A program made the translations under genes and the position numbers. Positions 3,656 to 61,881 of a stretch of DNA of 64,000 nucleotides are shown here, in pieces (the stretch's first letter is position 1; every line of letters starts with the position of its first letter). The stretch is from contig JANPRD010000002.1 of assembly GCA_024699715.1 (NCBI GenBank), forward strand, positions 219,372 through 283,371, written 5' to 3'. The notes beneath the pieces are model-generated. The model was not told the DNA's origin and did no database searches. It worked only from the letters and a program-made list of their open reading frames with translations. This stretch comes from Candidatus Methanophagales archaeon (lineage in GTDB: Archaea; Halobacteriota; Syntropharchaeia; Alkanophagales; Methanospirareceae).

Positions 3656-3772
3656 AAAACTTCTTTAATATCATTCTAAGATCATACCATTTTATTTCGG
3701 GTAACAAAATATAAAAAAGCAGCCAGCAGTAGGTCAGGAATTTGAGATGACATTTCATTTTATAACGAAAAA

Positions 3773-4768: not shown

Positions 4769-6160
4769 AGGACTGCCTCCGCCGCCTTCCTCACGGCATC
4801 TCGCTCCTCTGGAATTGTGTAAACGCCAACATTATAACTTTCGCTCATCGCCCGCTCAACCATCCGAACAAGCGCAGAAACTTCTCTCAAAGGCTTCAAT
4901 CTTACCGCACCTCTGCTTCTTACTGCTCCGCTTCCACTCTCTTCGCTGCCCTCTTCGCTCCCACTTCGCCCTTCACTTCCACTTCTTTCCGCACTTCTCG
5001 TAAATTCGTCGCTTCCAACGCTTCCTTCATGCCCTTCGCCGATTAGAACTTTCGCAGCGCTCTCTTCCGCAGTCTCACGCCTCTGCACATCCAAAATCAC
5101 AAGACTTCGCTCAACTCTCGCCCTCCTCGCTATTTCAGCCTCAATTTCTTTGCACTTTCGCTCATCTTCAAGCTCTGAAAGAATTCCAGCGTCAATCTCG
5201 CTCATTTTTCGGTAGAACGCCCTTTTGAAGAGCCTCCTTTCGTTTATCCGCTCAATCATCTCTCTCGGAAAACCCTTAGCGTTGCGAAGAAGCACATTCA
5301 CCTCGTAGTCGTCCATTCTTCGTAGCGTGAATGCGAATGCACGGGCATCCTCACACTCTTCCAAATACGCTTCAAGCGCACGAATGAACATCGCCTGCGC
5401 AATCCTCGTCGTGTGGTGATTATATACCGTCGGATACATGAGAAATCTTGAGAAAATGAGGTATTCTGCGGGAATTATTCCCTTCTCGGTGAGAACAATC
5501 TCGCCTTCAAACATGCTAATACCCTGAATGAGTCGTATATTGTCTATGACGCCGTATGCAACACCTGTATAATACGCATCTCTGACCAAATAATCCATCT
5601 TGTCAGCATCTATTTCGCCCTTCAGAATGCCTGAAAGCTTCTCTGTGCCTTTAACGAATGAAAGCACCTTTCGCTTGTCCAAGTCGTGATGCTCAAGAAC
5701 TTCGGTAACAGTCCTCGCATCTCCTTCGCTCTCTTCGCTCTCCCCGCTCTCCCCTTTCCGCTCCCGCTCTCCGCCTCGCATCGTCGTCTTCGGCATCAGC
5801 GGTGGTGGCGTTGCCAAGAACGATGTCTTCAATATCCTCGTGGCTCTTTCCCGTGAATTTCCGAATGAGAGGCTCGGAGACATGCGAGTAAGGACCATGC
5901 CCGATATCGTGAATAAGTGCTGCTGCGAGCAGTTCCTCCGTCTCTTCCCTCACATTCAGATGCTCAAGCAGGACGCTTGTGAGGTGGAAAACGCCGAGAG
6001 AATGCTCAAATCTCGTGTGGTTCGCACCCGGATAAACGAGATAAGAGAAGCCGAGCTGCCTGATTCTGCGAAGTCTTTGCATCTCACGCGTGTCTAAAAT
6101 GTCAATAGCAAGGTCGTCAAGCCGAATGTAGCCGTGAATCGGGTCTCTCACAACCTTCAT
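4762..6160 (-). CDS. HD-domain metal-dependent phosphohydrolase (dNTP triphosphohydrolase-like); one frameshift inside a low-complexity insert (about 5700-5800)
   Basis: ORF 5693..6160 carries RFEHSLGV and HDIGHGPYSH. ORF 4762..5898 continues with DADKMDYLVRDAYYTGV. The two overlap in a GA-rich insert. Confidence 0.75.
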
Positions 6161-10072: not shown

Positions 10073-11970
10073 ATGGACTACGAGAGAATTGGACTTAAGG
10101 TGGGATTGGAAATACACCAGCAGTTGAACACGAGACGAAAGCTGTTCTGCGGATGCCCGACGGTGCTTCGTGAGAAAGAAGATGCGACGCTCACATTCAA
10201 ACGCTTCTTGAGGGTTGCGAGGAGCGAGTTAGGTGAAGTGGACGAGGCAGCGTTAGAGGAAGAGAAGAAGCAACGCACATTCATTTACAAGGCTTACGAC
10301 AGCACTTGCCTCGTTGAAAATGACGAGGAGCCGCCGAGCGAGCTGAACGAAGAGGCGTTGGATATTGCCCTTGAGATTGCACTTCTTCTGCACATGAAGC
10401 CCGTTGAGGAGGTTCACACGATGCGGAAGATTGTGATTGACGGAAGCAACACGAGCGGATTTCAGCGGACTGCACTCGTTGCGACTGACGGTTGGATTGA
10501 AAGCGAAGAAGGCATCGTAGGCATAGAAACGCTTTGTCTTGAGGAGGAAGCCGCTCAAAAGATTGAAGAGGGGGAAGACGCTGTTGTTTACTCTTTGGAC
10601 AGGCTCGGAATTCCTCTCGTTGAGATAAGCACCGCTCCTGACATCAAAACGCCGAAGCAGGCGAGGAAGATTGCCGAAAAAATAGGCATGATTCTCCGCT
10701 CAACTGGAAAAGTTAAGCGTGGAATAGGCACTATCAGGCAAGATTTGAACATTTCCATAAAAGATGGTGCGAGGGTAGAGATAAAAGGCGTTCAAGATTT
10801 GAGGTTAATAGAGAAAATAGTTGAGAATGAGGTCAAGAGGCAGTTGAAATTGCTTGAAATAAGGGATGAGTTGAGGCGAAGAGGTGCGAGAGTTGAGAGG
10901 CGTGTTTTGGACCTCTCTGATATTTTTGCAGAGACCCGCTCAAGGGTGGTGAAGAAGCAAGGAAAGGTCTTCGGGGCGTGTTTGCGGGGCTTCGGCGGTA
11001 TTCTCGGCATTGAAATTTCTCCAGAGCGAAGGTTCGGCTCCGAGCTTGCGGACCACGCAAAACGCTTCGGTGTCGGGCTGATGCACACTGACGAGTTGCC
11101 CGCTTACGGAATAAGCGAGGAGAGAGGTGCGAAAGGGTGAAAGAGGCGTTCAACGCCACAGCGGAGGACTGCGTCATTTTGATAGCGAGTGCATCGCAGG
11201 AGAGGGCGGAGAAGGCATTTTCAGCGGTCTTCGCTCGGGCGGAGAAGGCGTTGGAAGGCGTTCCGGAGGAGACGAGGCGTGCGCTCCCTAACGGAAGCAC
11301 GGCTTACTTGCGACCTTTGCCCGGCGCCGCTCGGATGTATCCAGAGACGGATGTTCCGCCTGTTGAAGTGAGCGAAGAAAGGGTGAAGCGGATTGCGAGC
11401 AGCCTTCCCGAGACGATTGAGCAGAAGGAGGAGCGATTTAGGAAGGAATACGGGCTGAGCGGTGAGCTTGCTGCGAAAGTTGCACGCACTTATCCTGAAG
11501 TTTTTGAGCGATTAGTGAATGTTTGCGCTCGCAAAGGGTGGAAAGTGCAACCGAAATTAATTGCAACGCTGCTAACTGACACGCTTACCGAGCTTTCTCG
11601 TGAAGGTTTTGAGATAGATGCGGAGTCTTTTGATTTTGAAGGGATTTTCCGCCTTCTTTCGGAGAATGCCTTCGGTAAGGAAGCGATTCCCGAAATATTG
11701 AAGTTTTTGGCGTCTCACGAGGGTGCGAGTGTGGAGGATGCGGTGGAAGCCCTCGGACTCCGAGCTTCGCTGGATGAAGTTGAGCGTTTCATTGAGAATG
11801 TTGTTCGTGAGCGTGAGGATTTTGTGCGAGAGCGTGGTATTTCAGCAGTCGGACCTCTAATGGGCGTCGTGATGAAAGATTTGCGAGGCAAGGTTGACGG
11901 AAAGGTTGTGAGCGAGATGCTGAAGGCGAAGATTGAAGCGTTCTTGCGAGGAAGCGAAGGCAAAAAATGA
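10073..11970 (+). CDS. gatE: Glu-tRNA(Gln) amidotransferase subunit E; one frameshift at about 11120-11140
   Basis: ORF 10073..11140 starts [31 protein letters not shown] 11137..11970 supplies the C-terminal half. Combined length about 630 aa matches GatE. Confidence 0.85.
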
Positions 11971-41105: not shown

Positions 41106-41537
41106 TCACATTTTAAATTCCCCCTGCTAAATAAAAACCTTTCACATTTCCATCGGCAGTGACTTTTCTACCCCCATCTCCACTCCACGCTCCCGCCTCC
41201 TTTTCCCTTTTCCGCCTCTCTCTCCCTTGCCCTTACCCTCGCCGTCGGCGCCTCGCAGCAACAGCTCGGTCGTTAGATGAATGCGTTATGACTGAGATGG
41301 AAGAGCAAACAGGAAAATGATACGAACAAATTATAAGCATTAAAGAAAAATTTGAGGGGGAGTAAATGAGGGTTGGCGGGCTTGAGCACTCTGCAGTGCT
41401 TCGCACCTTGCCCTTCAGGTCACTTGACAGGTGTGTATCCGTCTTCGCTCCGCTTTGCCCAAATCCCCGCTTCGCTCGGACTTCAAATACCCGTAGGACG
41501 CTAAGTGAAATGAACAATAGTAGTAGGAGGTGGAGTT

Positions 41538-44330
41538 ATGGTCAGAGAAAAAATAATAAATTGGCTTAAAAAGCTGGAACAAATAAAAGATTACATTGAA
41601 ACCTTTGAAATTGCCCCAGCCATTAGTATTCTTGGCATAATCGACATTTCATTTGCTAAAGGTAAAATCAAGTTAAACCCTGAAGAATGGGATGATGAGG
41701 ATAAAGAAAACATCGCTAATTTTCTACGCACTCATATAGATATAACTTTAAAGGAGTTTGAAGAACTACTTAAAAAGGAAATTAGGGAAGTTTCAGAAGA
41801 AAAGCAAAAATCAATCCGAGAGCAACTTGATCAGTTTAGTAAATTACTCACACGGTTGCTCGTTGAAAACCCATTAATTCCGTTAGAAGAATTTGAAAGA
41901 AGGGCTGAAATTGAGCCGTTACTGAAATATGAATTCGTCGGTAGAGAATCAGAACTTGAAGGACTTCGTAAGTTTTTGGAGAGCGATAAAAAAGTATTTC
42001 TGCTTACAGGAGATGGTGGTGTGGGTAAAACGAGATTAGCCATAGAATTTGCGAGAGAAGTGGCAAAGAGGAAAGTATCAAATGGTAATTGGGATGTTTA
42101 TTTTATAGATCAAGATAGAGAATTCAAATATCCTGTGGTCTCTAATGTGCTGGGCAATAGGAATACTTTACTCATTTTAGATGATACATCAAGATATCGT
42201 AATAGAGATCGTGTTATTGGATTTATACAGAATCCGCCTGAGGGTAGAAACATAAAACTTTTGCTCATTGACAGACCTATCTTTAAGGGATTTATTATAA
42301 ACGAAGTAAAAGAAAGGGGTATATCTGTGGAAGAACTCCAAATTGGAGGAGGAAACATCTCTTCCTTTATTGAAAGAAATTTTGAAATAAGAAGAGAGGA
42401 TGCGGAGCGGATACAAGAGGAGTCTGGAGGCAATTTCGTAATCGCCATATTTCTCGCAGAATATTACAGAGATAAGGGAAGGATTGGAAAACAGAAAGAA
42501 GCCGTAGATTACAGAATAGAGAAATATAAGAAAGATATTAAGGAGCATACGGGTATTCCCATCGACGATATTGAGAATACTCTTTTCCTGTTATCACTTC
42601 TTACTCCTATTGAGTGGAAAAAAGACTCCAAATATATTCAAGAGGTTTTAAATCATCTGCCAGCGTATGAGTTCCACTATTTGAAAAAGGTTATAGGTTT
42701 GGCGGGTAGAGATTTCTTTATATTGAAATCTGGTGAAAAGTATGTTTTCAAATATGACCTCATTGCCGAGTATTTTTTATCTCAGTTTATGGAAAGAGAG
42801 GATTTTGATGAAATTGTGAAGGAATTCCTTCCTTACATGCCTTCTAGAATATCCTACAATATTCTTATGACTCTAAGATTTTTTATTCCAAGATATCTTA
42901 TAGAAAAAGCAGAGGAAATTGCTCAAACACTGAGATTTTTTGGAGAAGAAGCAGAAGAAACGGTTCAAACACTGAGATTTTTTAGAGAAGAAGCAAGAAA
43001 AGCGGTTCAAAATGAAAAAGTGAAAAAAGCATTTCAAATACTTGGTGAAATATGGGAAGAATTAAATAAGATTGAAGGTCAGACACCTGAATATTTTTCA
43101 GCGTTGGTGTTACTTACAGGTAATCCTTTTCTTGATGCTCCTGATATAGAAAAAATAAACATAAATCATTGGATTCAGTGCTATGAGAAGGTCTCCAAAG
43201 ACTATCCAGAAGAGATAAAAGAGGTAAGAGAAAACCTCGCCAAAGCTTTGGTTAATGCAGCGAACCATTTCGGGAAGGCAGGTAAGATTGAGGATATGGA
43301 AAATTGCTTGGAAAAATTGGAGGAACTTCACAAAGAATATCAAGAGAAAGAATTAAGGGAAGAACTTGCCAAAGCTTTGCTTAATGCAACAGCTGATTAC
43401 GGGAGGGCAGAAAGGTTTAACGAGATGGAGGCTTGTCTTGAAGAGCTAAGAGAACTTCACAAAAAGCATCCAGAGAAAGAGGTGCGAGAAAAACTTGCCA
43501 TGGGCTTGTATAATGCGGCAAACAATTATGTTAAGGTGGGTAAGTTAGAAAAGATGGAATCCTATCTTAAAGAGTTGAGAGAGCTTCACATGAAGTATGA
43601 AGAGAAAGAGATAAGGGAAGAACTTGCCAAAGCTTTGTTTAATGCAACAGGATATTACGGTGAAGCAGGTAAGTTAGAGAAAATGGAAGCATGCCTGGGA
43701 GAATTGAGAGAGCTTCACCTCAGGTATCCAGAAAAGGGGGTAAGAGTAGGACTTGCCATAGGCTTGTTTAATGCAACGAACTATTACGGCAGGAGAAATA
43801 AGCTTAACAAGATGGAAGATTGTCTTAAAGAGCTGAGAGAGCTTCACATGGAGTATAAGGAAAGAGAGGTAAGAGAAGAACTTGCTGGAGGCTTGTTTAA
43901 TGCAGCGCACTATTACGGTGTGGCGGGTAGGTTAGAAGAGATGGAGGCTTTTCTTAAAGAGTTGAGAGAACTTCACAAAGAATATCCAGAGAGGGTGATA
44001 AGAGAAGAACTTGCCAAAGCTTTGGTTAATGCAACGAGTTATTACGGTAAGAGAGATAAGCTTGTCGAGATGGAAGTTTGCCTGAGAGACCTGAGGGCAC
44101 TTCACATAGAGCATCCAGAGAAAGAGGTAAGAGAAGAACTCGCCAAAGGTTTGTTTAATGCAATTTACCATTATGGTAGGAGAGGTATGATAGTCAAGAT
44201 GGAAGCTTGCTTGAGAGCACTAAGGGAACTCTACCTAAATCATCCAGAGGAAGAAGTGAGAAAAGAGCTTGCTAAGGGTTTGTCTTATATGCGGATGTAT
44301 AGGAGGAGGTTATTACAGTTGGGCGGATAG
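41538..44330 (+). CDS. STAND-type P-loop NTPase with an unknown N-terminal domain and eight 43-aa TPR-like helical repeats
   Basis: 930-aa intact ORF. FVGRESELEGLRKFL, Walker A GDGGVGKT, Walker B LLILDD. AT-rich (19 GC in nt 41581-41640 versus 31 GC in nt 45001-45060). Confidence 0.75.
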   Translation: MVREKIINWLKKLEQIKDYIETFEIAPAISILGIIDISFAKGKIKLNPEEWDDEDKENIANFLRTHIDITLKEFEELLKKEIREVSEEKQKSIREQLDQFSKLLTRLLVENPLIPLEEFERRAEIEPLLKYEFVGRESELEGLRKFLESDKKVFLLTGDGGVGKTRLAIEFAREVAKRKVSNGNWDVYFIDQDREFKYPVVSNVLGNRNTLLILDDTSRYRNRDRVIGFIQNPPEGRNIKLLLIDRPIFKGFIINEVKERGISVEELQIGGGNISSFIERNFEIRREDAERIQEESGGNFVIAIFLAEYYRDKGRIGKQKEAVDYRIEKYKKDIKEHTGIPIDDIENTLFLLSLLTPIEWKKDSKYIQEVLNHLPAYEFHYLKKVIGLAGRDFFILKSGEKYVFKYDLIAEYFLSQFMEREDFDEIVKEFLPYMPSRISYNILMTLRFFIPRYLIEKAEEIAQTLRFFGEEAEETVQTLRFFREEARKAVQNEKVKKAFQILGEIWEELNKIEGQTPEYFSALVLLTGNPFLDAPDIEKININHWIQCYEKVSKDYPEEIKEVRENLAKALVNAANHFGKAGKIEDMENCLEKLEELHKEYQEKELREELAKALLNATADYGRAERFNEMEACLEELRELHKKHPEKEVREKLAMGLYNAANNYVKVGKLEKMESYLKELRELHMKYEEKEIREELAKALFNATGYYGEAGKLEKMEACLGELRELHLRYPEKGVRVGLAIGLFNATNYYGRRNKLNKMEDCLKELRELHMEYKEREVREELAGGLFNAAHYYGVAGRLEEMEAFLKELRELHKEYPERVIREELAKALVNATSYYGKRDKLVEMEVCLRDLRALHIEHPEKEVREELAKGLFNAIYHYGRRGMIVKMEACLRALRELYLNHPEEEVRKELAKGLSYMRMYRRRLLQLGG

Positions 44331-44440
44331 ATTTGATGAGATGTGGAAGCTTGCTTGAAGAACTGAGGGAACCAAAGTCTGGGAGAAAGAAATAGGAGAG
44401 AAACTTGCTATGGGCGTGCTTAATGCAAATTTTTGAACAT
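43230..44440 (+). repeat. Tandem 129-bp (43-aa) coding repeats: 8 intact units plus about 2 frameshifted, decayed units beyond the current stop
   Basis: Units of the form ELAKALxNAxxYYGxxGKLxxMExCLxELRELHxxYPEKEVRE. After 44330 the same motif continues in other frames (YYSWADRFDEMWKLA, EKLAMGVLNANF). Confidence 0.85.
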
Positions 44441-44638
44441 GCTGACATCAAAAAAGACTGTGGAAGCATCTGAGATGCCGTTCCACGAATGAAGAGAGGG
44501 GTGCTGTTTAAGTGCCGAAAATGCGGGAGGTGCATAGGCAGTAAGCGCTGTAAGGGCCCCGTGGAGTCCATACGGGAGTCACTGCGCCCGTCGCTCTTGC
44601 AAGGTGAGAGTATGCACGGCTTCGGTCGTGGGAGGACT

Positions 44639-45850
44639 TCAGCTATTGCGGCGTCTCCTCTCCCGCAGTGCTTTGAAGAAGCGTTTTCCTTTTCGTGAGG
44701 CATCCACGCTGAACTGTTCCAAGCCCGGGACGATGACACGCACAACAGGCACGCCAAGCTCTTCTCTTGTGAGTTCAACGAAGAGAGCGAGTTTGAAATT
44801 ACGCCTTCGCAGCGCCTCAAGTGTTATTTGAATGTCCTCAGAGATGTCTTTCGCAGAGATGTCCTCAATCGCTTCAAATGATTTCATCGCAGCGGGGGAG
44901 AACCAGTGCTTGTTTATTTCTTTCATTCGCTCGTAGCCAACGGAACGCATCGCTTTCACCTGTGCTGCGATGTCTTCCCTTGCTCCTTGTATTTGAACGA
45001 CACGATTTTGAGCGACCTCTGTTAATGCTCGTGCTACTGCAACAGAAGGGTCAAGGTGCGTGCCGACGCCGAAAGTAAGAAAAGCAGCATCACACAGCTC
45101 AACATCGTCAGCAACCGCTGCGACCGTCGGGATGCCTATATCTGAAGTGATGTCATGCAAATGAATTTTGATGTTTGCACGCTCAAAACGCTCAACCAAC
45201 GCTGCGAGCCTCTCAGGAACAGAATCGCATGCTATTCCCGTTGTTTTTCGTGATGCTTCCGCCAAGCTCCACGCATCACGCTCTATGACCTCAAGCAAGC
45301 CGTGAAGAATCGCCTCCTCAAGCGTGTTTCCTGATGCGAGACCGTTCGTGTTGCTTCTGAAAATGTGCATCGCACTCGCATCGGAAGGGTTGTAAGGGTG
45401 AAAAACCGCATTCGCAGGCACTAAATACTCCTCGCCGTCAAAAAGATTCTTTGCTGAAATCCATTCTAAAACGAGACTGCGAGCATCCATATTCGCAGGC
45501 AAGATAAGCGAGTTGGGGTCTATTGCACCTTCACCTTCAAGCTCGTAAAAAGAGCCTCTCACCAAATCTTCAGAATGCATCTCCGCCGAATACCTCTCAA
45601 ATGATTCCATCATCGCCGAAACTTTCGCCTCTACCGCTGTTGTCCCTTTCCCTGAATGCACGCTGACCGCACCTTGCCTCGCACTCGGTCTCATCGCAGA
45701 GAATACTGGAATTCCGACCCTGTCCAAGCCCGTGATGTCTGCTATTCTCGTGACGCCTGCAACGCTCAATTTCGGTGAAAAGCGGCGCAGCGTCTCCTCC
45801 GGCGGAACAACCCTGTGCGAAGTCCCTACATACCTGCAGAGCGACTGCAA
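44639..45850 (-). CDS. ycaO: YcaO-domain protein (methanogen marker-1 / thioamidation-type)
   Basis: 403-aa intact ORF. ITGLDRVGIPVFSAMRP, GKGTTAVEAKVSAMMESFERYSA and SNTNGLASGNTLEEAILHGLLEVIERDA are typical YcaO motifs. Confidence 0.8.
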   Translation of the reverse strand: MQSLCRYVGTSHRVVPPEETLRRFSPKLSVAGVTRIADITGLDRVGIPVFSAMRPSARQGAVSVHSGKGTTAVEAKVSAMMESFERYSAEMHSEDLVRGSFYELEGEGAIDPNSLILPANMDARSLVLEWISAKNLFDGEEYLVPANAVFHPYNPSDASAMHIFRSNTNGLASGNTLEEAILHGLLEVIERDAWSLAEASRKTTGIACDSVPERLAALVERFERANIKIHLHDITSDIGIPTVAAVADDVELCDAAFLTFGVGTHLDPSVAVARALTEVAQNRVVQIQGAREDIAAQVKAMRSVGYERMKEINKHWFSPAAMKSFEAIEDISAKDISEDIQITLEALRRRNFKLALFVELTREELGVPVVRVIVPGLEQFSVDASRKGKRFFKALRERRRRNS

Positions 45851-45983
45851 CGCCCCCCCTCACCCTCCGAAGCCTCTTAAGCAACAAAAGACACTACGAG
45901 AAGTGAGCCCTGAAGTGCAAAATGGAAATCTCAGCAGTCAAGCGGCGAAAAGCCGATGCCTGATTTTGCTGCAGAATCAGATG

Positions 45984-47292
45984 TCATCCCCCGCTTATCA
46001 CAGACAGTATTATTATTTCGTCTCCTCCCCGCACCTCCACATCTAAATCATCAATCAAGCGACCATTCAGCGAGATATTCACGAATTCATTCACCGCAGA
46101 GCCGTCAAACACACGCTTCTTGAACGCTTCTCCGTAAATCTCGGCGAGACGCCTCAAAACTTCACGAAGGGTCGCTGAACTACGAGCCTTCGCTCCTCCC
46201 TCCGCAGCATCCGCAGGCGCAGAAGAAGCTCCGACGCCGTCGCTCAATTTCAGGACGAGCTCCCTCTTCTTCGTGAGCGGAAGCAGTGCAGAGGAGAACT
46301 TCACCTTTACGGTGTGGTCGCCGCCACTCGCACCTTCGCCTTTTTTCGCTTCTCCGGTTGCTACGGCGGAGTTTCCAGCACTTAGAATTTGCTCCCTCAG
46401 CTTGAAATCCCACGCTAACTCTCGCTCAAAGTCTGCGAGAACTCTGCTCTTTGGTCGGCGAAGCCACTGCAATCGCTCTTCGTTCTGGTCTTTCATGCTC
46501 CTTCGCTTAACTGTGAGGTCTGGGTAGACAGTGAGCCATGTGCGCTGAGGCGGAGGCGTCGGGAACTCTCTGAAGCAACTCCTGCTCACAATCACATTCT
46601 TCAGGTGCTTCTTCGCCGCCTCGTAAGCACGCTCCATCTCTTCAATCGTCGGAGCCCTTGAGACACGCTCAAATGCGAATGTCGGTGCGAATGGGTTAAT
46701 CCGATATTTAATGTTCTCATCTATTGATGCAAGGAACGACTGCAATTCGCTCAATTTCATCCGCTTGAACAATCCCTGGAATGTAAATTGTTTGCGCAAG
46801 CAGTTCAATGCCTTCATCGTAAAGCATCTTCACAGCGGAAAGCACAGGTTTGTTTGACTTTCCAGTATACCAGCGGTGAATTTCATCAGAAAACGCTTTA
46901 ATGTCAATGTGAACTTCCGTGAGTCCTGCGGATTTCAATGCGTGAGCGTAACTGCCACTCGCATCCTCGCCTATCGCATAGCCATTCGTCATAAGCACAA
47001 TCTCCTCAAATCCTCGCTCCCTCAAACCTGAAATGAGCGAAAGTAAGAAATCTCTGCTGATTGTCGGTTCTCCGCCCGTAATCATCGCCTTCTTCGGCAA
47101 GAAACCGTAGCACTTCTCACACGCCTTCTCAGCGAGAGAAAGCGCCTCCTCCGCAGTTAAAAGAACGCCTCCTCCGTCACGAGCAGGTCTGAAGCATCCC
47201 CTGCATCTGAAATTGCAACCCGTGAGCATGAACCAGATGCGTGGCTCAATCTCGGAGAGCGTGAAATACTGAACGCCTCTTCGCTCCGCCAT
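45984..47292 (-). CDS. Radical SAM enzyme fused to a C-terminal ThiS/MoaD-like beta-grasp domain ending Gly-Gly; one frameshift at about 46735-46760
   Basis: ORF 46717..47292 has CNFRCRGC, GGEPT and MTNG. ORF 45984..46817 continues (SFLASIDENIKYRINPF...) and ends VKVKFSSALLPL...VNISLNGRLIDDLDVEVRGGDEIIILSVISGG-stop. Confidence 0.7.
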
Positions 47293-47392
47293 CTCCTTCC
47301 TTATTTCCTCATCCGCTTATAAAAATTTGAGCGTTTTTTGAGAGAATTCCACCTCCGCCTGCTCCATGCATCGGCTTATGAGCATGAGCGCC

Positions 47393-47425: not shown

Positions 47426-47499
47426 GGGCCGGTAGCTCAGCACGGTAGAGCAGCAGGCTCTTAACCTGCCCGTCGGGGGTTCAAATCCCTCCCGGCCCG
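47426..47499 (+). tRNA. tRNA-Lys (anticodon CUU)
   Basis: Hand fold with all four arms canonical: acceptor GGGCCGG/CCGGCCC, D arm GCTC-AGCACGGTA-GAGC, anticodon arm GCAGG-CTCTTAA-CCTGC, T arm GGGGG-TTCAAAT-CCCTC. 74 nt. Confidence 0.9.
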
Positions 47500-47586: not shown

Positions 47587-49006
47587 ATGGGCAAGGCTTA
47601 CGATGTTGTCATTGTGGGTGCGGGTCCTGCGGGGCTTTTCGCCGCTTTTGAGCTCTGCGGAAAATTTGACAGGATTCTCGTCGTGGACAAGGGAAAGGAT
47701 GTGGGCGAGAGGCACTGCCCGATGAACTCCGCTTTGAATTGCTTGAACTGCAAGAACTGCGATATAATGTGCGGTTTGGGCGGTGCAGGCACTTTCTCAG
47801 ACGGAACGCTTAACCTTCGTCCTGACATCGGTGGCGATTTGACGGAGTTCTGCGACGCAGAGACCGCTTGGTCGCTCGTGAGATATGTTGACAAAATATT
47901 CCTCGCTCACGGCATGCCTGACAAAATTTACAGGGGCGATAAGGATGAAATTGAGAATTTGAAGCGAAGAGCGGCGGCAGTAGGCGCAAGTTTCATAGAG
48001 ATTGAGCAAAGACATATAGGCTCTGACAGAACGAAGGAAATTATTGAGAACTTCAAGCGAGATTTGGAGCAGAATGGCGTTGAATTCATGCTCAAAACTT
48101 GCATTTCCGACTTAATTATTGAAGATGGTAAGGATGAAAGCGGAGGGGATGAAAGCACTGAGGTCAAAATTTGCAGAGGCGTAATTACAGAGCGGGGAGA
48201 GAAAATAAGGAGCAGATTCACAATCCTTGCACCTGGGCGAGTGGGAGCCTCTTGGGTTGAAAGTTTGATTGAGAAATATGGCATTGAGAGCCAATATGCG
48301 GGTATTGATGTCGGAGTTCGTGTTGAAGTTCCCGCAATTACGATGGATCCAGTGACAAGAATAAACAGAGACCCGAAATTTCACATAAGAACGGACACTT
48401 ACGAGGACTTCACGAGGACTTTCTGCACAAATGAGCGGGGATTCGTTGTCAAAGAGGTTTATGATGAATTCATTGGAGTGAACGGACACTCATTTAAAGA
48501 ATAAGAAATCAGAGAACACGAACTTCGCATTTCTCGTGAGGGTTGAGCTTACGGAGCCTGTTGAGAACACCACAGAATACGGTAAGTCAATAGCGAAACT
48601 CGCAACGACAATAGGCGGAGGAAAACCCATTATTCAGCGCATGGGCGACTTGAAAAGGGGAAGAAGGTCAACTCCAGAGCGAATAAGGAGGTCTTTGGTG
48701 AAAAATACGCTCAAAGATGTTACTCCTGGGGACATATCAATGGCACTACCGCACAGAATAGTCATGGATATTGTTGAAGGGTTGGAGAAACTTGACAAGA
48801 TAATACCTGGGGTTGCTGCGGACTCAACGCTTCTCTACGCACCTGAGATAAAATTCTATGCGATGCGGCTTTGCGTGAGCGATAAAATGGAGACTTCCGT
48901 GAGAAATCTATTTGCGGCTGGGGACGGTGCGGGACTCTCAAGAGACATCGTGAATGCCGCTGCAACAGGAATACTCGCTGCGAGAGGCATCATTCAAAAA
49001 TCTTAG
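47587..49006 (+). CDS. FAD-dependent oxidoreductase (COG2509-like uncharacterised dehydrogenase); one frameshift at about 48493-48500
   Basis: [16 protein letters not shown] dinucleotide-binding motif. ORF 48536..49006 continues the protein ([21 protein letters not shown] in the second frame). The break is at an A run. Confidence 0.7.
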
Positions 49007-52730: not shown

Positions 52731-53366
52731 ATGCACATACCGGATGGTTTTCTGGACCTGTGGATATGCGCCCTCATGTATGTTATCTCGGCGGTGGTCA
52801 TCGGTTATTCGGCGGTGAAGCTGAAAGGGACGCTGGAGAGCAAGCAAGTTCCGCTGATTGGAGTGGTCGCTGCTGGCATATTCGCAGCGCAGATGTTGAA
52901 CTGGCCGATTCCAGGTGGGACTTCCGCACATCTCGTCGGTGGTGCGATTGCAGGAATCCTTCTCGGACCTTATGCGGGATGCCTTTCCATGGCTTCCGTC
53001 CTGACAATACAATGCTTGGTCTTCGGCGACGGCGGCATCACCGCACTCGGAGCAAATATATTCAACATGGGCATCGTTGATGTTTTCGTTGGCTACGCAG
53101 TTTTCAGGGCACTGCGAAATTTCAATCAAGATGCCGCAACATTCCTCGCAGGTTGGCTCGGAATATGGCTCGCCGCTATCGCTTGTGGCATAGAAATCGG
53201 TGTTTCCTCAATATTCAAATACGAAATCGGTGTAACAGTGCCTACAATGGGCATCTGGCACGGCATTCTCGGCATCGTTGAAGGCATCATCACCATGCTC
53301 GTCATCAGATACATCGCATTGAGGCAGCCTGATATAATTTATGCTGCGAAGGAGGTGGTTGCCTAA
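52731..53366 (+). CDS. cbiM: ECF transporter substrate-capture component CbiM (Co/Ni)
   Basis: The MHIPDGFL N-terminus and polytopic membrane profile are typical of CbiM. Confidence 0.85.
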   Translation: MHIPDGFLDLWICALMYVISAVVIGYSAVKLKGTLESKQVPLIGVVAAGIFAAQMLNWPIPGGTSAHLVGGAIAGILLGPYAGCLSMASVLTIQCLVFGDGGITALGANIFNMGIVDVFVGYAVFRALRNFNQDAATFLAGWLGIWLAAIACGIEIGVSSIFKYEIGVTVPTMGIWHGILGIVEGIITMLVIRYIALRQPDIIYAAKEVVA

Positions 53367-53659
53367 TGCTTGAAAGTCTGAAAGAGTGGAAAGGTGCGCT
53401 AATCGTCATCGGCATCCTCTTGCTGCTTACGCCGCTATTCGCATGGGCAGCAGACCTCGTCGGATATGCCGAACCGCTTGAGAATGCCGCTGAACATCTC
53501 GGAGCGATGGAACATGAAACCGCAATCATCTCAGGAATTCTGCCAGATTACACGATTCCCGGAGCGAATCCGTATGCATCTGCAATCGTCGCTGGGATTG
53601 TCGGCTGCGTAATTGTTCTCGTTATAGGCATCCTCGTAGGTAAAGCACTCGCAAGATAG
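53366..53659 (+). CDS. PDGLE-domain small membrane protein occupying the CbiN position
   Basis: 97 aa with two TM segments flanking GYAEPLENAAEHLG (PDGLE-like). Start overlaps the cbiM stop. Confidence 0.55.
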   Translation: MLESLKEWKGALIVIGILLLLTPLFAWAADLVGYAEPLENAAEHLGAMEHETAIISGILPDYTIPGANPYASAIVAGIVGCVIVLVIGILVGKALAR

Positions 53660-53672
53660 CTTTTCGGCTGAA

Positions 53673-54470
53673 ATGGCGGACTTCACAAGGACTCTCAGGG
53701 AAATCTCGGGACTCCTTCGGGACTTCTTGGCTGCTGAAGAATATGCATCACGAAAAGGCTTCCTGCAAGCAGTGAATCAGAAGGCGAAGCTGACGGGCAT
53801 TCTCCTCCTTATTGCTCTCGCAATATCCACGCAAAACCCTTTTTACCTTTTTTTCCTCCTCTTATTCTCGCTCTCTGTTGTTATTCTCTCAAAAATTCCG
53901 TTGAGGGCTTATCTTCCAAGATTCGGCTTCATTCCGCTATTCGCATTCATTATTGTCATCCCTTGGCTCTTCCTCACGGAAGGTGAGCCCGTATTCTCAC
54001 TTCTCGGTGTTGAAATAACGAAAGAAGGCATCATGTATGTGCTTACTTTTGGACTTCGTGTGACCGCATGTGTCGCCGCAATTTCTCTTCTTTTGTTCAC
54101 AACGAGGGTTTCCGACTTGCTTTACACTTTGCGTTCGCTGAAAATTCCTGAAATGTTCGTTGAAATTCTCGGCATTACTTACCGTTACCTGTTCTCGCTC
54201 CTTTCAGAACTGCAGAAGATGCTTCTCGGAAAAGAGAGCAGGGTCGTCTCGGCGAAAGGGAACTCTTGGCGGACAGGTGCTAAAATAGCGGCGAATTTCA
54301 TGCTGAGAACGCTCTCAAAGGGCGAGAAAGTGCATAAGGCGATGCTCGCAAGGGGATACAGCGGAAAATTTAAAACATATCCGAGAAATCAAGGATGGAA
54401 TGCAAACAGCAGTGCATTCGTCGCTATCGTCGCAGCGATGGTGGTTCTATGGCTTCTGACAAGATTATAG
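53673..54470 (+). CDS. cbiQ: ECF transporter transmembrane T component CbiQ
   Basis: 265-aa membrane ORF between cbiM and the ATPase; typical size and position. Confidence 0.75.
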   Translation: MADFTRTLREISGLLRDFLAAEEYASRKGFLQAVNQKAKLTGILLLIALAISTQNPFYLFFLLLFSLSVVILSKIPLRAYLPRFGFIPLFAFIIVIPWLFLTEGEPVFSLLGVEITKEGIMYVLTFGLRVTACVAAISLLLFTTRVSDLLYTLRSLKIPEMFVEILGITYRYLFSLLSELQKMLLGKESRVVSAKGNSWRTGAKIAANFMLRTLSKGEKVHKAMLARGYSGKFKTYPRNQGWNANSSAFVAIVAAMVVLWLLTRL

Positions 54471-55300
54471 AGGCGAGGAATTTGAAATATCGCTATCCTG
54501 ATGGGACAATAGGCGTTGAGAATGTTGATTTTGAGCTCTGGCGTGGCGAAAGGGTCGTTATTATAGGACCAAACGGCTCTGGAAAAAGCACACTGCTCCT
54601 GATTATTGGCGGCTTAATCTCACCAACAGAGGGCAGTATAAAATTTTTTGGCAAGGAAAAGATAGAGCCTTACGAGTTGAGGCGGAAGGTGGGCATCCTT
54701 CTTCAGAATCCTGACGATGTGCTTTTCAATCCGACGGTGAGAGAGGATTTGGAGTTCGGACCTGCGCAGATTGAGATGCCCGAAGAGGAGTTCAAGCAAA
54801 TTCTTCACGCTGTGACGCAAATGCTTCACATTGAACATCTCTTGGACAAGCCCCCTTTCAGACTCAGTGAAGGACAGAAGCAGAAAGCCGCTTTCGGATG
54901 CGTCCTCACGATGAAACCTGAGGTTCTGCTGCTTGACGAGCCTTTCTCCGCCGTTGATATTGAGACAAAACTTTCAATGATAAGGCATCTGAACGAATTG
55001 AACAGGCAAGGCGTAACAATTGTCGTGACTGCACACGACATTTCTGTTGTTCCGCTGATTGCAGACAGGGTTTATCTGCTTAACAAGCATGTCGTCGCAG
55101 TGGGAAAGACGAGAGAAATCCTGACGAATGTTGAACTGCTCCGCAAGAATGGGCTTGATGCCCCTCCATTTGTTGAATTCGCACTGAAACTCGGTTTGAA
55201 TCCTCTTCCGCTTACTGTTGATGAGGCGGTAAGAAGCGTTCGGAAATTGATTGAGAGCGGTGGGAAGGAAAAGGAAGAAGAAGCAAACGAAAGCGACTGA
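54449..55300 (+). CDS. cbiO: ECF transporter ATPase CbiO
   Basis: GPNGSGKST, LSEGQKQK and LLLDEP motifs. Start moved to MASDKIIEARNL. Confidence 0.85.
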   Translation: MASDKIIEARNLKYRYPDGTIGVENVDFELWRGERVVIIGPNGSGKSTLLLIIGGLISPTEGSIKFFGKEKIEPYELRRKVGILLQNPDDVLFNPTVREDLEFGPAQIEMPEEEFKQILHAVTQMLHIEHLLDKPPFRLSEGQKQKAAFGCVLTMKPEVLLLDEPFSAVDIETKLSMIRHLNELNRQGVTIVVTAHDISVVPLIADRVYLLNKHVVAVGKTREILTNVELLRKNGLDAPPFVEFALKLGLNPLPLTVDEAVRSVRKLIESGGKEKEEEANESD

Positions 55301-56667: not shown

Positions 56668-56837
56668 AATAGAAATAGAAGAGGGACGATAAAAATGAAA
56701 AATTGAAGGCTCTGCTCTGTTTTTATTGACTATGCAAGGCATTTGGCGGTAATGCAATATTGTGAAAACGGAGATTTGGAACAGGATGGCGGAGAAGTGG
56801 AGGAGTGAGAGATTTTGAGAGAAAGGAAATGAGGAAG

Positions 56838-57884
56838 ATGGGTTTTCATGACAGGGAAAGAGAAATAAAGGAGATAATGAACATCTTAAATACCGAGCCT
56901 ACTTTGATTACTTTCATATATGGTCCTATAAATTCAGGTAAAACCGAACTTATTAACCACTTAGCTAAGCAATTACCTGAGAATTATGTTGTATTCAATG
57001 TGAATTTGCGCGGTAAATTCATATCAGATTACAGAGATTTTGTGCGTGCTTTATTCAAAATAGAAAGAGAGAAGACATACAAAGACATAATCAGGAAAAT
57101 ATCCGAAGTTTCTGTGAAGGCATTGAACTTTGTAGGCATTCCAGTAACGGAGGATATATTGAATTTACTGTTTAAGGAGCGGACTTATGAGGATGTTTTT
57201 GAGTTTCTTGAGGATTATTTTATGAAAATAGGTGAGAATAAGAATTCCGTATTGATTTTGGATGAGTTACAGGTGATAAAGGATGTAAAAGTGGATGAAC
57301 TGCTGATATACAAGCTTTTTAATTTCTTCATTCGCCTGACGAAGGAGTTGCATTTGTGTCATGTGTTCGCAATAACATCTGATTCGCTCTTCGTTGAGCG
57401 CATTTACAAAGAGGCGATGTTGCAAGGGCGCTGTAGATACTTATTTGTGGATGATTTTGACTACGAAACGGCGATTGCCTTCTTGAATAAATATAAATTC
57501 GGAGAAAAGGAGAAGGAAATGGTATGGGAGTATGTGGGCGGTAAGCCCGTTTATTTGGTTGAGCTTGCGAATGCGAAAATGAATGGGAAGGACATAGAAG
57601 AGGAAGTGAAGAAGTTGTTGAAGATTAGAACGAATCAAATACTTTCAATATTTGACGAAATATCGCTTCGTAAGGTAGAATATTCAGAGGAGGCAATAAT
57701 AGAGGAATTCAAGAGATTTGAGAATGAGGAGATAATACAATATGATAGGATGAACAAGGAAAAAATATTTCTTGTTGAAAGGAACATTCTGTTCATTGAC
57801 CCGATACAAAGAACAGTAAAACCACAATCAAAATTGGACTTGCTTGCCATAAGGAATGTGTTGAAGTGCGAGAGGAAAAAGTGA
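56838..57884 (+). CDS. Archaeal ATPase-family (PF01637-like) P-loop protein
   Basis: FHDREREIKEI, Walker A GPINSGKT, Walker B VLILDELQ. AT-rich (20 GC in nt 57001-57060). Confidence 0.7.
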   Translation: MGFHDREREIKEIMNILNTEPTLITFIYGPINSGKTELINHLAKQLPENYVVFNVNLRGKFISDYRDFVRALFKIEREKTYKDIIRKISEVSVKALNFVGIPVTEDILNLLFKERTYEDVFEFLEDYFMKIGENKNSVLILDELQVIKDVKVDELLIYKLFNFFIRLTKELHLCHVFAITSDSLFVERIYKEAMLQGRCRYLFVDDFDYETAIAFLNKYKFGEKEKEMVWEYVGGKPVYLVELANAKMNGKDIEEEVKKLLKIRTNQILSIFDEISLRKVEYSEEAIIEEFKRFENEEIIQYDRMNKEKIFLVERNILFIDPIQRTVKPQSKLDLLAIRNVLKCERKK

Positions 57885-59581: not shown

Positions 59582-60739
59582 TCAGAGCAGATTGTAAAGC
59601 GTGTCTCGCCTGCGAGGTTTTCTACCTGCGTCTTCAATCAGCCTTTCAAGCGCATCAGGCGGCATGTATTCGCCTGAAGAAGCGCCTGCGAGCCTTGAAA
59701 TGTTCTCCTCCATTAGTGTTCCTCCCAAATCATTTGCACCGAAGAAAAGCATCTGCTGCGCACCGAAGGGCGTCAATTTCACCCATGATGCCTGTATATT
59801 CTTGCAATAAGGATGCAAAATCACCCTTGCGAGAGCATGAACAACCGCATCTTCAAACAGATTCACTTCCCTTTTCACAATTTTACCGAGTTCATTGTTC
59901 CCTCTCATGAATTTAAGAGGGACAAATTCCGTAAATCCACCTGTCTCTTTCTGTATTTCCCTTATTTTGAACATATGTTCTATCCTATCCTCAATACTTT
60001 CAATATGACCATACATTATTGTTGCGGTAGTGGGTATTTTCAAGCGATGAGCCGTCTTTATGATGCTTTCCCACTCTTTTGTTCGCAACTTCTTCGGGCA
60101 TATTACCCTTCTTATATCGTCATTCAGTATTTCTGCTGCTGTTCCGGGCATTGAATCCAGACCTGATGCCCTCAATTCCCTCAAAACTTCCTCACAACTC
60201 ATGCCAGAGTTGCGTGCAATATGGAAAATTTCCATCGGCGAGAATGCGTGAATATGCACATCAAATTCGGACTTTATCCGTTCAAGCATTTCACAGTAGA
60301 AATCTATCTTTAAGTCGGGATGAAGACCTCCTTGAATGCATATTTCCGTCGCTTCAAGCGAAACAGCCTCCTGAACTTTGCTCAAAATCTCTTCAATTCG
60401 CAGTAAATATGCATCATTTGAGTGCTTTCTACGCCTGAAAGCGCAGAATTTGCATTCTCCAACGCATATATTCGTGAAATTTATGTTCCTGTTCACGACA
60501 TAAGTAACGATTTCACCTTTCTCTTGCTCACGAAGAGCATCTGCAATTTTGAAAAGGATGTGCGGGTGCCTCGCAAGGAAAAGAGCGTCCTCCTTTCCGA
60601 TTTCGCCTCGCAGAGCCTTCTCATAGATTTCCATTCCCTTCGCCTCTTTCGCAGCCTCTTTCAGCGTAAGTGTCGTGTCAGCGGTTGCGGGTCTGCCACT
60701 TCCTACTGCGTTTGCTTGTGTGTTTGTTCGTGTGTTCAT
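59582..60739 (-). CDS. cofH: CofH/MqnC/MqnE-family radical SAM enzyme (probably FO synthase subunit CofH)
   Basis: VNRNINFTNICVGECKFCAFRR, PGTAAEIL and GANDLGGTLMEENISRLAGA. CofH versus futalosine-pathway paralogues cannot be separated by eye. Confidence 0.55.
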   Translation of the reverse strand: MNTRTNTQANAVGSGRPATADTTLTLKEAAKEAKGMEIYEKALRGEIGKEDALFLARHPHILFKIADALREQEKGEIVTYVVNRNINFTNICVGECKFCAFRRRKHSNDAYLLRIEEILSKVQEAVSLEATEICIQGGLHPDLKIDFYCEMLERIKSEFDVHIHAFSPMEIFHIARNSGMSCEEVLRELRASGLDSMPGTAAEILNDDIRRVICPKKLRTKEWESIIKTAHRLKIPTTATIMYGHIESIEDRIEHMFKIREIQKETGGFTEFVPLKFMRGNNELGKIVKREVNLFEDAVVHALARVILHPYCKNIQASWVKLTPFGAQQMLFFGANDLGGTLMEENISRLAGASSGEYMPPDALERLIEDAGRKPRRRDTLYNLL

Positions 60740-61881
60740 TTCTTAATGCCCGTGAGAAACTCACGCTCAAAGTCAAAGACAACGGTGGAATTCCCACCTT
60801 TAGTTATTTTAAGTTTCCTCGTAGCGTCAATTTCTCCAACAATATTCGCATCAATACCAGCATCTTCAAATATATTTATGCATTCCTTGCCATCTTCCAC
60901 ATCTTTAACAGTCAAAATGAAGCCCATTCCGGGATAAATTTTCAGCCATCGCTCCATCGTCATTTCATTTTCAGGCGGCTTCGGTATTTTAGGAATCTCA
61001 ACAGTTGCGCCGACGCCTGAAGTTTCGAGGAGCATCGCAAGAGTTCCGATGACACCGGGATTTGAGATGTCTTTTCCTGCGGTTGCGAGATGTCTTTCGC
61101 CGATTTCAACCATGGTGGAGAGGCGTTTCTTTATTTCTGAATGCGTTTTTTCCGTTGTAGAATCCCAACCCATGCGGAATTTTGAGCGGGTTTTCCCATC
61201 TGTGTCTATTGCAACAATCACCTTATCGCCTGGTCTCGCACCGTTTGAGAAAATAACGCAATTTTTACGCACAGTCCCGACGATTGCGACATCAACAGCG
61301 TCGTAATGCGTGTCAGGATGGACATGCCCGCCTACCATGGGGACGCCGAACTTCATGACGCCTGCGTGTAAGCCTTCCGCAATCCTTTCCCTGACTTCTT
61401 CCTTTGCAGAGGCAATCACATTCACCATCGCAAGAGGCTTTCCGCCCATCGCAGCGATGTCATTCACATTCACGAGGACTGCGCAATATCCCGCCCACCA
61501 AGGGTCTGCTTCAAGCAGGCGACCCCAGATGCCATCTATTGCTACGAGCACATACTCTTCGCTGCCGACATCAATGACCGCAGCGTCCTCACCGAATCCC
61601 GCAACAGTCCTACCGCCGACGGCGTCTATGCCTCCGAACAACCGCATTAAATCGCTTATCGCTCGCTTACGCTGAACGCCCTCGTATTTCCTGACAGATT
61701 CCGCAATCCTCTTCAAATCCGCTTCATAACTGCTCTTCTCGCTCCCTCTCCCCTCGTCTATCATCGCTTTCACCACCACTACCACACTTCTCAATTCCAT
61801 CTCGTAATGCGAAGCCTCCCCTTCTTTCTCCTTTCCTTCCGCTGTCCTTCTTCGGAACGCCATCTGAAGAAGAGAGAGCAT
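60736..61881 (-). CDS. AIR-synthase-related (PurM/ThiL/HypE superfamily) protein, possibly methanogenesis-marker-2-like
   Basis: GEDAAVIDVG, NVNDIAAMGGKP and VGGHVH motifs. The true start may be the internal Met at 61800. The marker-2 link is memory-based. Confidence 0.55.
   Translation of the reverse strand: MLSLLQMAFRRRTAEGKEKEGEASHYEMELRSVVVVVKAMIDEGRGSEKSSYEADLKRIAESVRKYEGVQRKRAISDLMRLFGGIDAVGGRTVAGFGEDAAVIDVGSEEYVLVAIDGIWGRLLEADPWWAGYCAVLVNVNDIAAMGGKPLAMVNVIASAKEEVRERIAEGLHAGVMKFGVPMVGGHVHPDTHYDAVDVAIVGTVRKNCVIFSNGARPGDKVIVAIDTDGKTRSKFRMGWDSTTEKTHSEIKKRLSTMVEIGERHLATAGKDISNPGVIGTLAMLLETSGVGATVEIPKIPKPPENEMTMERWLKIYPGMGFILTVKDVEDGKECINIFEDAGIDANIVGEIDATRKLKITKGGNSTVVFDFEREFLTGIKK

Follow-up and report, generated by a model that had tools for sequence, protein, structure and literature searches.

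Which route brings sulfur to YcaO proteins that have no TfuA, and which enzyme makes the methylthio-F430 of the anaerobic methanotrophic archaea of group 1 (ANME-1), are two questions described as open (PMC10702137, PMC11411713, PMC13063428). Both are raised by a locus of a Candidatus (Ca.) Methanophagales archaeon in which a ycaO gene stands next to a gene for a radical S-adenosylmethionine (radical-SAM) enzyme with its own sulfur-carrier-like domain at the C-terminus. The locus lies within a stretch of 64,000 nucleotides (contig JANPRD010000002.1, positions 219,372 to 283,371), hereafter called the window and numbered from its first letter (coordinates in Table 1). What would such a fused enzyme do beside ycaO? 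The reading that we prefer, and to which we give about an even chance, is that both genes belong to a single operon, in an ANME-1c methanotroph (Ca. Methanoxibalbensis ujae or a close strain), serving the sulfur-dependent maturation of methyl-coenzyme M reductase (MCR). The evidence that carries it consists of the identities of the domains, the conservation of the fusion and of its terminal Gly-Gly, the restriction of the family to ANME-1, and its linkage to ycaO, tfuA, thiF, nifU, rhodanese genes and the mcr operon. MCR catalyses biological methane formation and anaerobic methane oxidation, and unknown maturation factors limit the heterologous production of ANME-1 MCR. The fusion is a concrete, cloneable candidate for either of the two questions, with its own carrier, a place beside ycaO and, in several lineages, a distance of a few kb from mcr and a methyltransferase gene, and it makes both directly testable with a handful of proteins.

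As judged from sequence, what is new is that the carrier of the known YcaO/TfuA/ThiS thioamidation system is built into an uncharacterised radical-SAM enzyme. No description of a radical-SAM/ThiS-type fusion was found in the literature, of which few subscription journals were covered, in keeping with a preliminary description of this DNA that could match the module to no described system. The observation made there is real apart from a frameshift that it overlooked, and its interpretation was partly right.

The YcaO of the window is full length, as had been claimed; no exact copy of it turned up in the contig collection. It scores 316.7 bits against Pfam YcaO and 479.2 bits (cutoff 365) against NCBIfam TIGR03266, the YcaO-related McrA-glycine thioamidation protein, with an alignment spanning model positions 2–375 of 376, and the YcaOs of the ANME-1 arrangements described below, at 406–488 bits, all lie above the same cutoff. 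By these scores the gene is an orthologue of the ycaO whose product forms the thioglycine of McrA. The window is 95.6–97.4% identical to contig 25 (JAOQIN010000025.1, here locus L005) of the Ca. M. ujae metagenome-assembled genome (MAG) NA091.008_2, which carries an equivalent fusion-ycaO pair. ANME-1c is a thermophilic, deep-branching family within ANME-1 (PMC9894754, PMC9539880) whose genes include mcrABG(D) (PMC9894754); the 64-kb window is devoid of mcr genes.

The second gene ends in a carrier-like domain, comprising the last ~105 residues of the fusion (TVKVKF...ILSVISGG-stop). This domain scores 32.7 bits against Pfam ThiS (PF02597, cutoff 22.5) and 31 bits against TIGR01687, and a profile built from 26 homologues matches the MoaD-like Ta0895 (E 1.2e-9), an M. 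acetivorans SAMP1 homologue, the MoaD-type 2m19 and CysO among PDB sequences. The AlphaFold model (predicted local distance difference test score, pLDDT, 77) is matched by Foldseek to SAMP1 3po0 (target-normalised TM-score 0.85, root-mean-square deviation 1.9 A), CysO, MoaD, Urm1 and TtuB. All 26 aligned homologues that are fused end in SGG, and the terminal Gly-Gly is invariant. Profiles and model thus agree with the preliminary description, which had seen a beta-grasp with a free C-terminal GG, and indicate that the domain is a genuine sulfur-carrier-type beta-grasp. Its Gly-Gly could be adenylated and thiocarboxylated, and a ThiF/MoeB/UbaA-like gene shares the cluster with the fusion in relatives. 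The domain resembles MoaD, ThiS, CysO, SAMP1 and Urm1 in its fold, its free C-terminal Gly-Gly and this association with a gene for a ThiF/MoeB-type activating enzyme (E1), and differs from them in being fused in cis behind an enzyme, in a disordered, lineage-specific insert of ~20 residues (SDGVGASSAPADAAEGGAKARSS) that separates the second strand from the main helix in ANME-1c copies, and in that its thiocarboxylate is putative.

The affinities of this domain can be narrowed further by comparison with carriers encoded near ycaO elsewhere. ANME-2 and Methanothrix have these genes arranged as YcaO-TfuA-[91-aa ThiS/MoaD]-MoaE-CutA-like-FdhD-ThiF, and more than 30 of their loci have a free ThiS gene directly after tfuA; among the tfuA clusters of ANME-1, a free ThiS gene occurs solely in L009. 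The fused carrier domains score 26–45 bits against tfuA-adjacent ThiS and 16–26 bits against the MoaE-adjacent MoaD of ANME-1. Because of this difference, and since free ThiS is generally missing, we read the fused domain as a carrier of thioamidation rather than of molybdopterin synthase. A role as the small subunit of molybdopterin synthase was rejected: next to MoaE, ANME-1 encodes a MoaD of its own, to which the fused domain bears less likeness.

It is also important to consider the state of the fusion gene, which in the window is broken into two open reading frames (ORFs) in different frames. The frame from 47292 (46717..47292, minus strand, 191 aa) reads MAERRG...CNFRCRGC...GGEPT and stops at 46717, and the other (45984..46817, minus strand, 277 aa) carries ...FLASIDENIKYRINPF... 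and ends ...ILSVISGG-stop; one extra base accounts for the shift (Table 1). The preliminary description was correct about the strand, the CNFRCRGC and GGEPT motifs and the short gap to ycaO, which measures 133 nt, but it took for one ORF what the extra base splits in two. The gene is intact in L005 (98% protein identity to the repaired window fusion) and in P0001, a 438-aa homologue that is 99% identical to the repaired fusion and represents 31 member sequences. Two other genes of the window are split as well: the two ORFs of gatE (within 10073-11970) match model positions 4-358 and 364-628 of 630, and the FAD-dependent gene beside the radical-SAM gene (within 47587-49006) forms two ORFs in the window and a single 473-codon frame in L005. 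Relative to L005, single-base indels lie in the radical-SAM gene and in this adjoining gene, which suggests that the split genes reflect indel errors of the assembly. Since the fusion is intact in the closest relatives, gatE and the FAD-dependent gene are split too, and a PacBio/Flye MAG has been published for Ca. M. ujae (PMC9539880), we read the frameshift as a probable assembly error. That the gene is instead a true pseudogene in this strain, its function covered by a second fused paralogue, strikes us as improbable, and would be compatible with the other readings considered here. The extra base does lie outside any homopolymer, and the species does have such a paralogue (L006, 1746-4449, 69–70% identical), but there is no further disabling change, the protein is 98–99% identical on either side of the shift, and the splitting of the essential gatE, together with the intact copies, points to assembly. 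A programmed frameshift was rejected, since this is no slippery sequence and the close relatives keep one frame across it.

The N-terminal domain matches Pfam Radical_SAM (PF04055) with 80.6 bits (cutoff 29.5) over residues 23-176 of the repaired fusion. In the full-length model (pLDDT 71, above 85 in the core) it forms a partial TIM barrel, for which the closest fold found by Foldseek is pyruvate formate-lyase (PFL) activating enzyme 3c8f (target-normalised TM-score 0.78, E 5.6e-10, 20% identity), followed by NifB, MoaA, SkfB, LipA, HydE and BioB. The preliminary description had asked whether the enzyme might belong to a characterised maturation family; it reaches no NCBIfam family cutoff, the best score being that of the YjjW-type activase TIGR04041 (63.3 bits vs. 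250.2). For the PflA-type activases (TIGR02493, 46.5 bits vs. 231.75) the similarity is one of fold alone, and a place among the methylthiotransferases MiaB, RimO and MtaB is not indicated, with no UPF0004 or TRAM match in Pfam or NCBIfam. Identity with MoaA, the GTP 3',8-cyclase, was rejected both on score (TIGR02668, 56 bits vs. 325; TIGR02666, 46.9 vs. 284) and on the pattern of cysteines. In the alignment of 26 homologues the only invariant cysteines beyond CX3CX2C are C61 and C242 (the latter in an SRSC motif), there is no obvious auxiliary-cluster motif, and a conserved extension or linker of ~90 aa (SRSCYREYPTPPPQKTW...WDFxLR) joins the radical-SAM and carrier domains.

The enzyme is thus like PFL activase and the other glycyl-radical activases in being a small single-cluster radical-SAM protein lacking an auxiliary cluster domain, and unlike them in its extension, its beta-grasp domain and its scores below the family cutoffs; no glycyl-radical enzyme was seen near the fusion. 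It shares with MiaB/RimO/MtaB, BioB and LipA a tie between radical-SAM chemistry and sulfur supply, and BioB and LipA are among its weaker structural matches, but it has no UPF0004, TRAM or auxiliary-cluster motif, and its sulfur would come from a protein thiocarboxylate. A weak likeness to the selenoprotein radical-SAM TrsS, with likenesses of neighbours to TsoB, MbdU and DVU_1556-type methyltransferases, led only to a function-less catalogue paper and was set aside.

With these domains in hand, we turn to where the fusion occurs. A search of 5.8 billion proteins with the fusion gave 208 matches at E ≤1e-5, and the best 120 of the 208 are all either full-length fusions (~410-440 aa) or unfused proteins (~317 aa), every named one coming from an ANME-1-type MAG. 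A scan of 185,579 species, one genome each, gave 67 loci, essentially all of them from ANME-1/Methanophagales MAGs (a few have implausible bin names). In an exhaustive HMMER search, a single full-length representative stands for the whole ANME-1 family, and the next matches are proteins of ~275-295 aa. In a tree of the radical-SAM domain (this and the YcaO tree below are quick neighbour-joining trees, rooted at the midpoint) there are two clades, A with fused and B with unfused proteins; the fused pair of ANME-1c copies (window/L005 and L006) branches at the base of B, and many genomes have one gene of each clade.

Gene neighbourhoods were mapped by tblastn and Pfam on contigs many of which are short. 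At least four distinct arrangements can be told apart. In the first (a), TfuA-YcaO-ThiF-NifU-(PNPOx-like)-(372-aa membrane protein)-(HbpS-like)-Rhodanese diverges from the fusion gene, in full at L001, L009, L013, L014, L019 and L027, and partial (contig ends) or degraded at L012 and L065. The second (b) reads DUF2284-YcaO-372-aa protein-Rhodanese, then the fusion followed by OrnDC...MoaE-IscS-like-FdhD-small methyltransferase-McrB, with tfuA and thiF absent within 10 kb (L002/L003, L022, L023, L026; L016, L021 and L064 are related). In the third (c), McrB-methyltransferase-U32-family protein-double rhodanese-PNPOx-like genes adjoin an unfused radical-SAM gene with a convergent ycaO 52-132 nt away (L032, L036, L041, L060, also L046). 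The fourth (d) is that of the window and L005, fusion then ycaO, co-directional and 133 nt apart. Overall, 11 of 26 fused loci have a ycaO within 10 kb, and 18 of 26 have the divergently transcribed rhodanese gene, where a given single-copy gene would be expected by chance in ~1% of loci; the loci are MAG contigs of related organisms and so are not phylogenetically independent. The pairing with ycaO that the preliminary description proposed to survey is therefore conserved among ANME-1 relatives.

Some neighbours merit mention in their own right. The U32-family gene (L036, 6926-7984; also in L032, L041, L042, L060, L035 and L021) stands between the mcr-adjacent methyltransferase gene and the rhodanese gene. 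U32 proteins include oxygen-independent hydroxylases, and if this one is a hydroxylase it might account for the 7-hydroxytryptophan of ANME-1 McrA, which is unexplained. Arsenic-resistance genes (ArsM, ACR3, ArsR, ArsP, thioredoxin/DsbD-like) after the fusion in L009 (11131-13665) and L001 (8111-11903) were judged coincidental, being found in close relatives only. A tandem pair of short radical-SAM paralogues also occurs in ANME-1 genomes, and a '90-aa' ORF after such paralogues was rejected as a free carrier, being a GNAT acetyltransferase cut by contig ends.

The neighbourhoods also decide how far the module can be called independent of TfuA. According to PMC13063428, which cites Liu et al. 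2021, TfuA and a thiocarboxylated ThiS homologue supply sulfide to thioamide-forming YcaOs outside high-sulfide settings, and ycaO-tfuA is often linked with thiF, sufS, moaD, moaE and moeB (PMC5589413). Some thioglycine-containing methanogens have no TfuA, which is thus not obligatory for thioglycine (PMC5589413), so its lack is not new in itself. That no tfuA accompanies ycaO here, as first described, stands: no TfuA of ANME-1 is matched by tblastn within the 64-kb window, and downstream of ycaO, in the window and in L005 alike, a spacer is followed by unrelated genes, with no tfuA adjacent or overlapping. The proposal of a TfuA-independent cassette, on the other hand, is not supported by the survey as a definition of the family. 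In at least eight loci, those of arrangement (a), the fusion clusters with tfuA-ycaO-thiF-nifU, and further fusion-bearing genomes have their tfuA on a separate contig; since tfuA lies in the fusion cluster of many relatives, the module is not TfuA-independent in general.

Compared with the YcaO-TfuA-ThiS system of McrA thioglycine formation (Nayak et al. 2017, PMC5589413), the locus has an orthologous YcaO above the TIGR03266 cutoff and a ThiS/MoaD-type Gly-Gly carrier encoded beside ycaO, and the clusters of its relatives hold tfuA, ThiF/MoeB-type E1, moaE, fdhD and IscS-like genes, as in the Methanosarcinales. It is unlike that system in that the carrier forms the C-terminal end of a radical-SAM enzyme rather than a free protein of ~90 aa, in the missing tfuA of the window, and in a gene order and a set of partners (rhodanese, membrane protein, DUF2284, PNPOx-like) that are specific to ANME-1.

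If tfuA is absent from some ANME-1 genomes, the radical-SAM protein might take its place as the partner of YcaO, supplying or positioning the sulfur or preparing McrA, a reading that we find distinctly doubtful. The ANME-1 ycaO genes with no adjacent tfuA (the window and four loci of the L036 type) lie 52-133 nt from a radical-SAM gene, and this short distance fits the idea of a partnership. In the YcaO tree (loci L001-L145), YcaOs of this kind form deep, divergent branches, with 43–52% identity to the TfuA-linked ANME-1 YcaOs, and the latter group with ANME-2 and Methanothrix YcaOs (~64%). Either a ycaO-tfuA unit was transferred, or the tfuA-less ANME-1 YcaOs evolve faster. Genome JBNGDK01 (L022, L094) has two ycaO genes of the methanogenesis marker 1 type, one in the order NifU-ThiF-YcaO-TfuA and the other clustered with a rhodanese gene and the fusion; the L094 YcaO and the 88%-identical L002 copy both exceed the TIGR03266 cutoff. 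The nearest structural relative of the enzyme, PFL activase, moreover acts on a glycine of a protein loop. Against a replacement of TfuA, the fusion and tfuA share one cluster in clade-A genomes, and radicals are not known to play any part in the chemistry of thioamidation. Among 77 ycaO loci sampled outside ANME-1, 52 have an adjacent tfuA, and the 25 that do not (all or nearly all from Methanobacterium/Methanobacteriaceae-type MAGs) show no radical-SAM gene of the fusion family nearby. The source genome may also have a tfuA outside the window: a scan with ANME-1 TfuA shows no match from the JAOQIN01 MAG among the best 80 of 246, and divergent copies could rank lower than these. Finally, according to PMC7581889, the YcaOs of M. 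kandleri and M. jannaschii, which lack tfuA, served to reconstitute thioamidation in vitro with an external source of sulfide.

We return to the preferred reading, a two-gene sulfur module for MCR maturation, which can be put as a mechanism. YcaO would convert the McrA glycine to thioglycine through ATP-dependent activation of the backbone carbonyl. The tethered carrier would correspond in ANME-1 to the free ThiS whose gene directly follows tfuA in Methanosarcinales; it would be charged by a ThiF/MoeB-type E1 and deliver sulfide equivalents to YcaO, through TfuA where it is present and, in lineages like that of the window, directly or with environmental sulfide as the source. The radical-SAM domain may use the tethered thiocarboxylate or act on the same substrate, in a second, radical step of MCR or F430 maturation.

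Several observations weigh against this proposal. Thioamidation requires no radical chemistry, so the model leaves the radical-SAM domain unexplained, and for this reason the domain probably does another job with the same sulfur. Within the 64-kb window tblastn finds no ThiF, rhodanese, NifU or MoaE of ANME-1 any more than TfuA, and since thiF, rhodanese, nifU and tfuA genes are missing there, we infer the sulfur relay from relatives. In those relatives, the cluster rhodanese and the 372-aa membrane-like partner may not feed a cytoplasmic carrier and may handle extracellular sulfur: the L001 rhodanese (3674-4537) combines a hydrophobic segment at its N-terminus with the archaeal surface-anchor signal PGF-CTERM, and for that reason is probably extracytoplasmic. 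The radical-SAM enzyme encoded beside ycaO lacks the carrier in the L036-type subclade, so that the conserved link of ycaO is to the radical-SAM domain and not to the carrier alone. The second fused paralogue of Ca. M. ujae (L006) adjoins moeA (molybdopterin molybdotransferase), which it directly follows, and no ycaO lies on that 6.9-kb contig. If the frameshift is real, moreover, the fusion copy of the window is dead.

What the radical step might be is suggested by the ANME-1-specific form of the MCR cofactor. The fusion could be the missing sulfur-inserting enzyme for 17²-methylthio-F430, an attractive reading, though on balance a doubtful one. The radical-SAM domain would take the C17² hydrogen of F430, the tethered thiocarboxylate would give the sulfur and the mcrB-adjacent methyltransferase would methylate the resulting thiol, with ycaO adjoining as both enzymes would draw on one sulfur relay for MCR maturation. 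No enzyme has been assigned to this modification: ANME-1 has one canonical methylthiotransferase, which modifies tRNA and not F430 (PMC10702137), and PMC11411713 still treats the question as open. Among the 185,579 species representatives, the paralogues, whether fused or of 317 aa, are essentially confined to ANME-1-type MAGs, and in several lineages a small methyltransferase gene and mcrB lie 3-6 kb away, the methyltransferase gene directly upstream of mcrB. Several clusters also contain an HbpS-like protein, of a family that binds haem or tetrapyrroles. Among the distant homologues of ~275-295 aa, that of Methanothermus fervidus (44% identical, with an SxSC...WITV[YF]PD motif common to both) adjoins a CobN-type chelatase gene, with an McrC-like gene and a TP_methylase gene close by; others occur in Methanomethylicia and Baldrarchaeota. 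A distant homologue of 284 aa is found with two small radical-SAM genes inside a corrinoid salvage/assembly operon (L156/L157, 2972-13053; BtuFCD-like transporter, CbiZ, CobS, CobD).

These distant homologues hint, weakly, at a tetrapyrrole substrate, but the hints are not conserved, and F430 is a conjectural substrate. The auxiliary-cluster motif is absent, with only two extra invariant cysteines; many ANME-1 genomes have two to four paralogues, some of them distant from mcr or ycaO; some methanogens that have relatives of the enzyme are not known to make methylthio-F430; and production of this cofactor by ANME-1c is not reported in the literature covered. We also know of no precedent for a protein thiocarboxylate as the sulfur source in radical-SAM sulfur insertion. 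If true, sulfur insertion at C17² of F430 would be the first radical-SAM formation of a C-S bond with sulfur from a protein thiocarboxylate and not from an auxiliary iron-sulfur cluster, and the mcr-adjacent small methyltransferase would complete 17²-methylthio-F430.

The place of L006 after moeA bears on one further explanation, namely that the fusion works in the biosynthesis or maturation of molybdenum/tungsten-pterin cofactors and that its nearness to ycaO reflects a general clustering of sulfur-transfer genes. The carrier is MoaD/SAMP1-like (by its TIGR01687 score and PDB matches that include MoaD), several loci have moaE, an IscS-like gene and fdhD after the fusion, and MoaA is among its structural and sequence neighbours. 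There is also a radical-SAM maturase family, TIGR04317, named for tungsten-cofactor oxidoreductases and so tied by name to molybdopterin-type cofactor enzymes, whose members are often encoded beside a MoaD-family protein. We nonetheless hold this explanation to be very improbable. The enzyme stays far below the family cutoffs, with 31.5 bits vs. 380 for TIGR04317 and 56 vs. 325 for MoaA, and no aldehyde:ferredoxin oxidoreductase gene was seen in the fusion neighbourhoods. MoaA carries a C-terminal three-cysteine cluster motif, which is not among the invariant cysteines of the fusion. The separate MoaE-adjacent MoaD of ANME-1 resembles the fused domain less than tfuA-adjacent ThiS does, and the same moaE-fdhD-thiF genes surround ycaO-tfuA in ANME-2 and Methanothrix as well, where a radical-SAM gene of this kind is absent.

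In the window itself, the spacer between the two genes has no obvious TATA-like box and ends in a purine-rich GGAGGGTGAGGGG right ahead of the TTG start of ycaO, so that co-transcription of the radical-SAM/carrier gene and ycaO is likely on sequence grounds. A candidate promoter lies upstream of the radical-SAM gene (Table 1).

Table 1. Features of the fusion-ycaO locus in window coordinates.
Feature	Position	Strand	Basis or remark
ycaO, 403 aa, methanogenesis marker 1 / McrA-glycine thioamidation type	44639..45850	-	Pfam YcaO, TIGR03266
Spacer, 133 nt	45851..45983	-	From radical-SAM/carrier stop to TTG start of ycaO; sequence read
Radical-SAM / MoaD-ThiS-like fusion gene, ~435 aa after removing one base	45984..47292	-	Intact homologues P0001, L005
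C-terminal beta-grasp sulfur-carrier-like domain ending Gly-Gly-stop	45987..46313	-	Pfam ThiS, PDB profile, Foldseek
Single extra base, coding-strand T in GCAG[T]CG	46739	-	Alignment with L005; not in homopolymer
Radical-SAM core, ~residues 23-178, CNFRCRGC (CX3CX2C) and GGEPT	46760..47226	-	PF04055, Foldseek
A/T-rich TATA-like box AAATTTTTATAAG, putative archaeal promoter	47314..47330	-	~30 nt upstream of radical-SAM ATG; sequence read

A tRNA-Lys (CTT) gene lies at 47426-47499 (plus strand), between the radical-SAM/carrier gene and the divergent FAD-dependent gene. On the other side, the distance from ycaO to the convergent STAND gene (41538..44330), given as about 310 nt in the preliminary description, measures ~308 nt. 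This gene encodes a 930-aa STAND-type NTPase with long helical repeats and occupies a 3.5-kb segment (41121-44654) with a GC content of ~37%, against ~48% in its flanks. Because the segment is missing from L005, which is otherwise collinear with the window, we take it to be a strain-specific insertion directly downstream of ycaO. Further STAND or archaeal ATPase_2 type NTPase genes are found at 1412-3573 and 56805-57884 (both plus strand); that at 1412-3573, with repeats of the KLAEKDEAAxDVA type, seems split, and an HD-domain gene in 4762-6160 may be split as well.

Another MCR-associated marker gene of the window encodes methanogenesis marker 2 protein (60736..61881, minus strand; TIGR03267, 437 bits vs. 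a cutoff of 365), directly followed downstream by a CofH/MqnC-like radical-SAM gene (59582..60739, minus strand). At 52731-55300 (plus strand), genes for CbiM, CbiQ and an ABC ATPase, together a cobalt/nickel ECF-type transporter, precede a quinolinate phosphoribosyltransferase-like gene.

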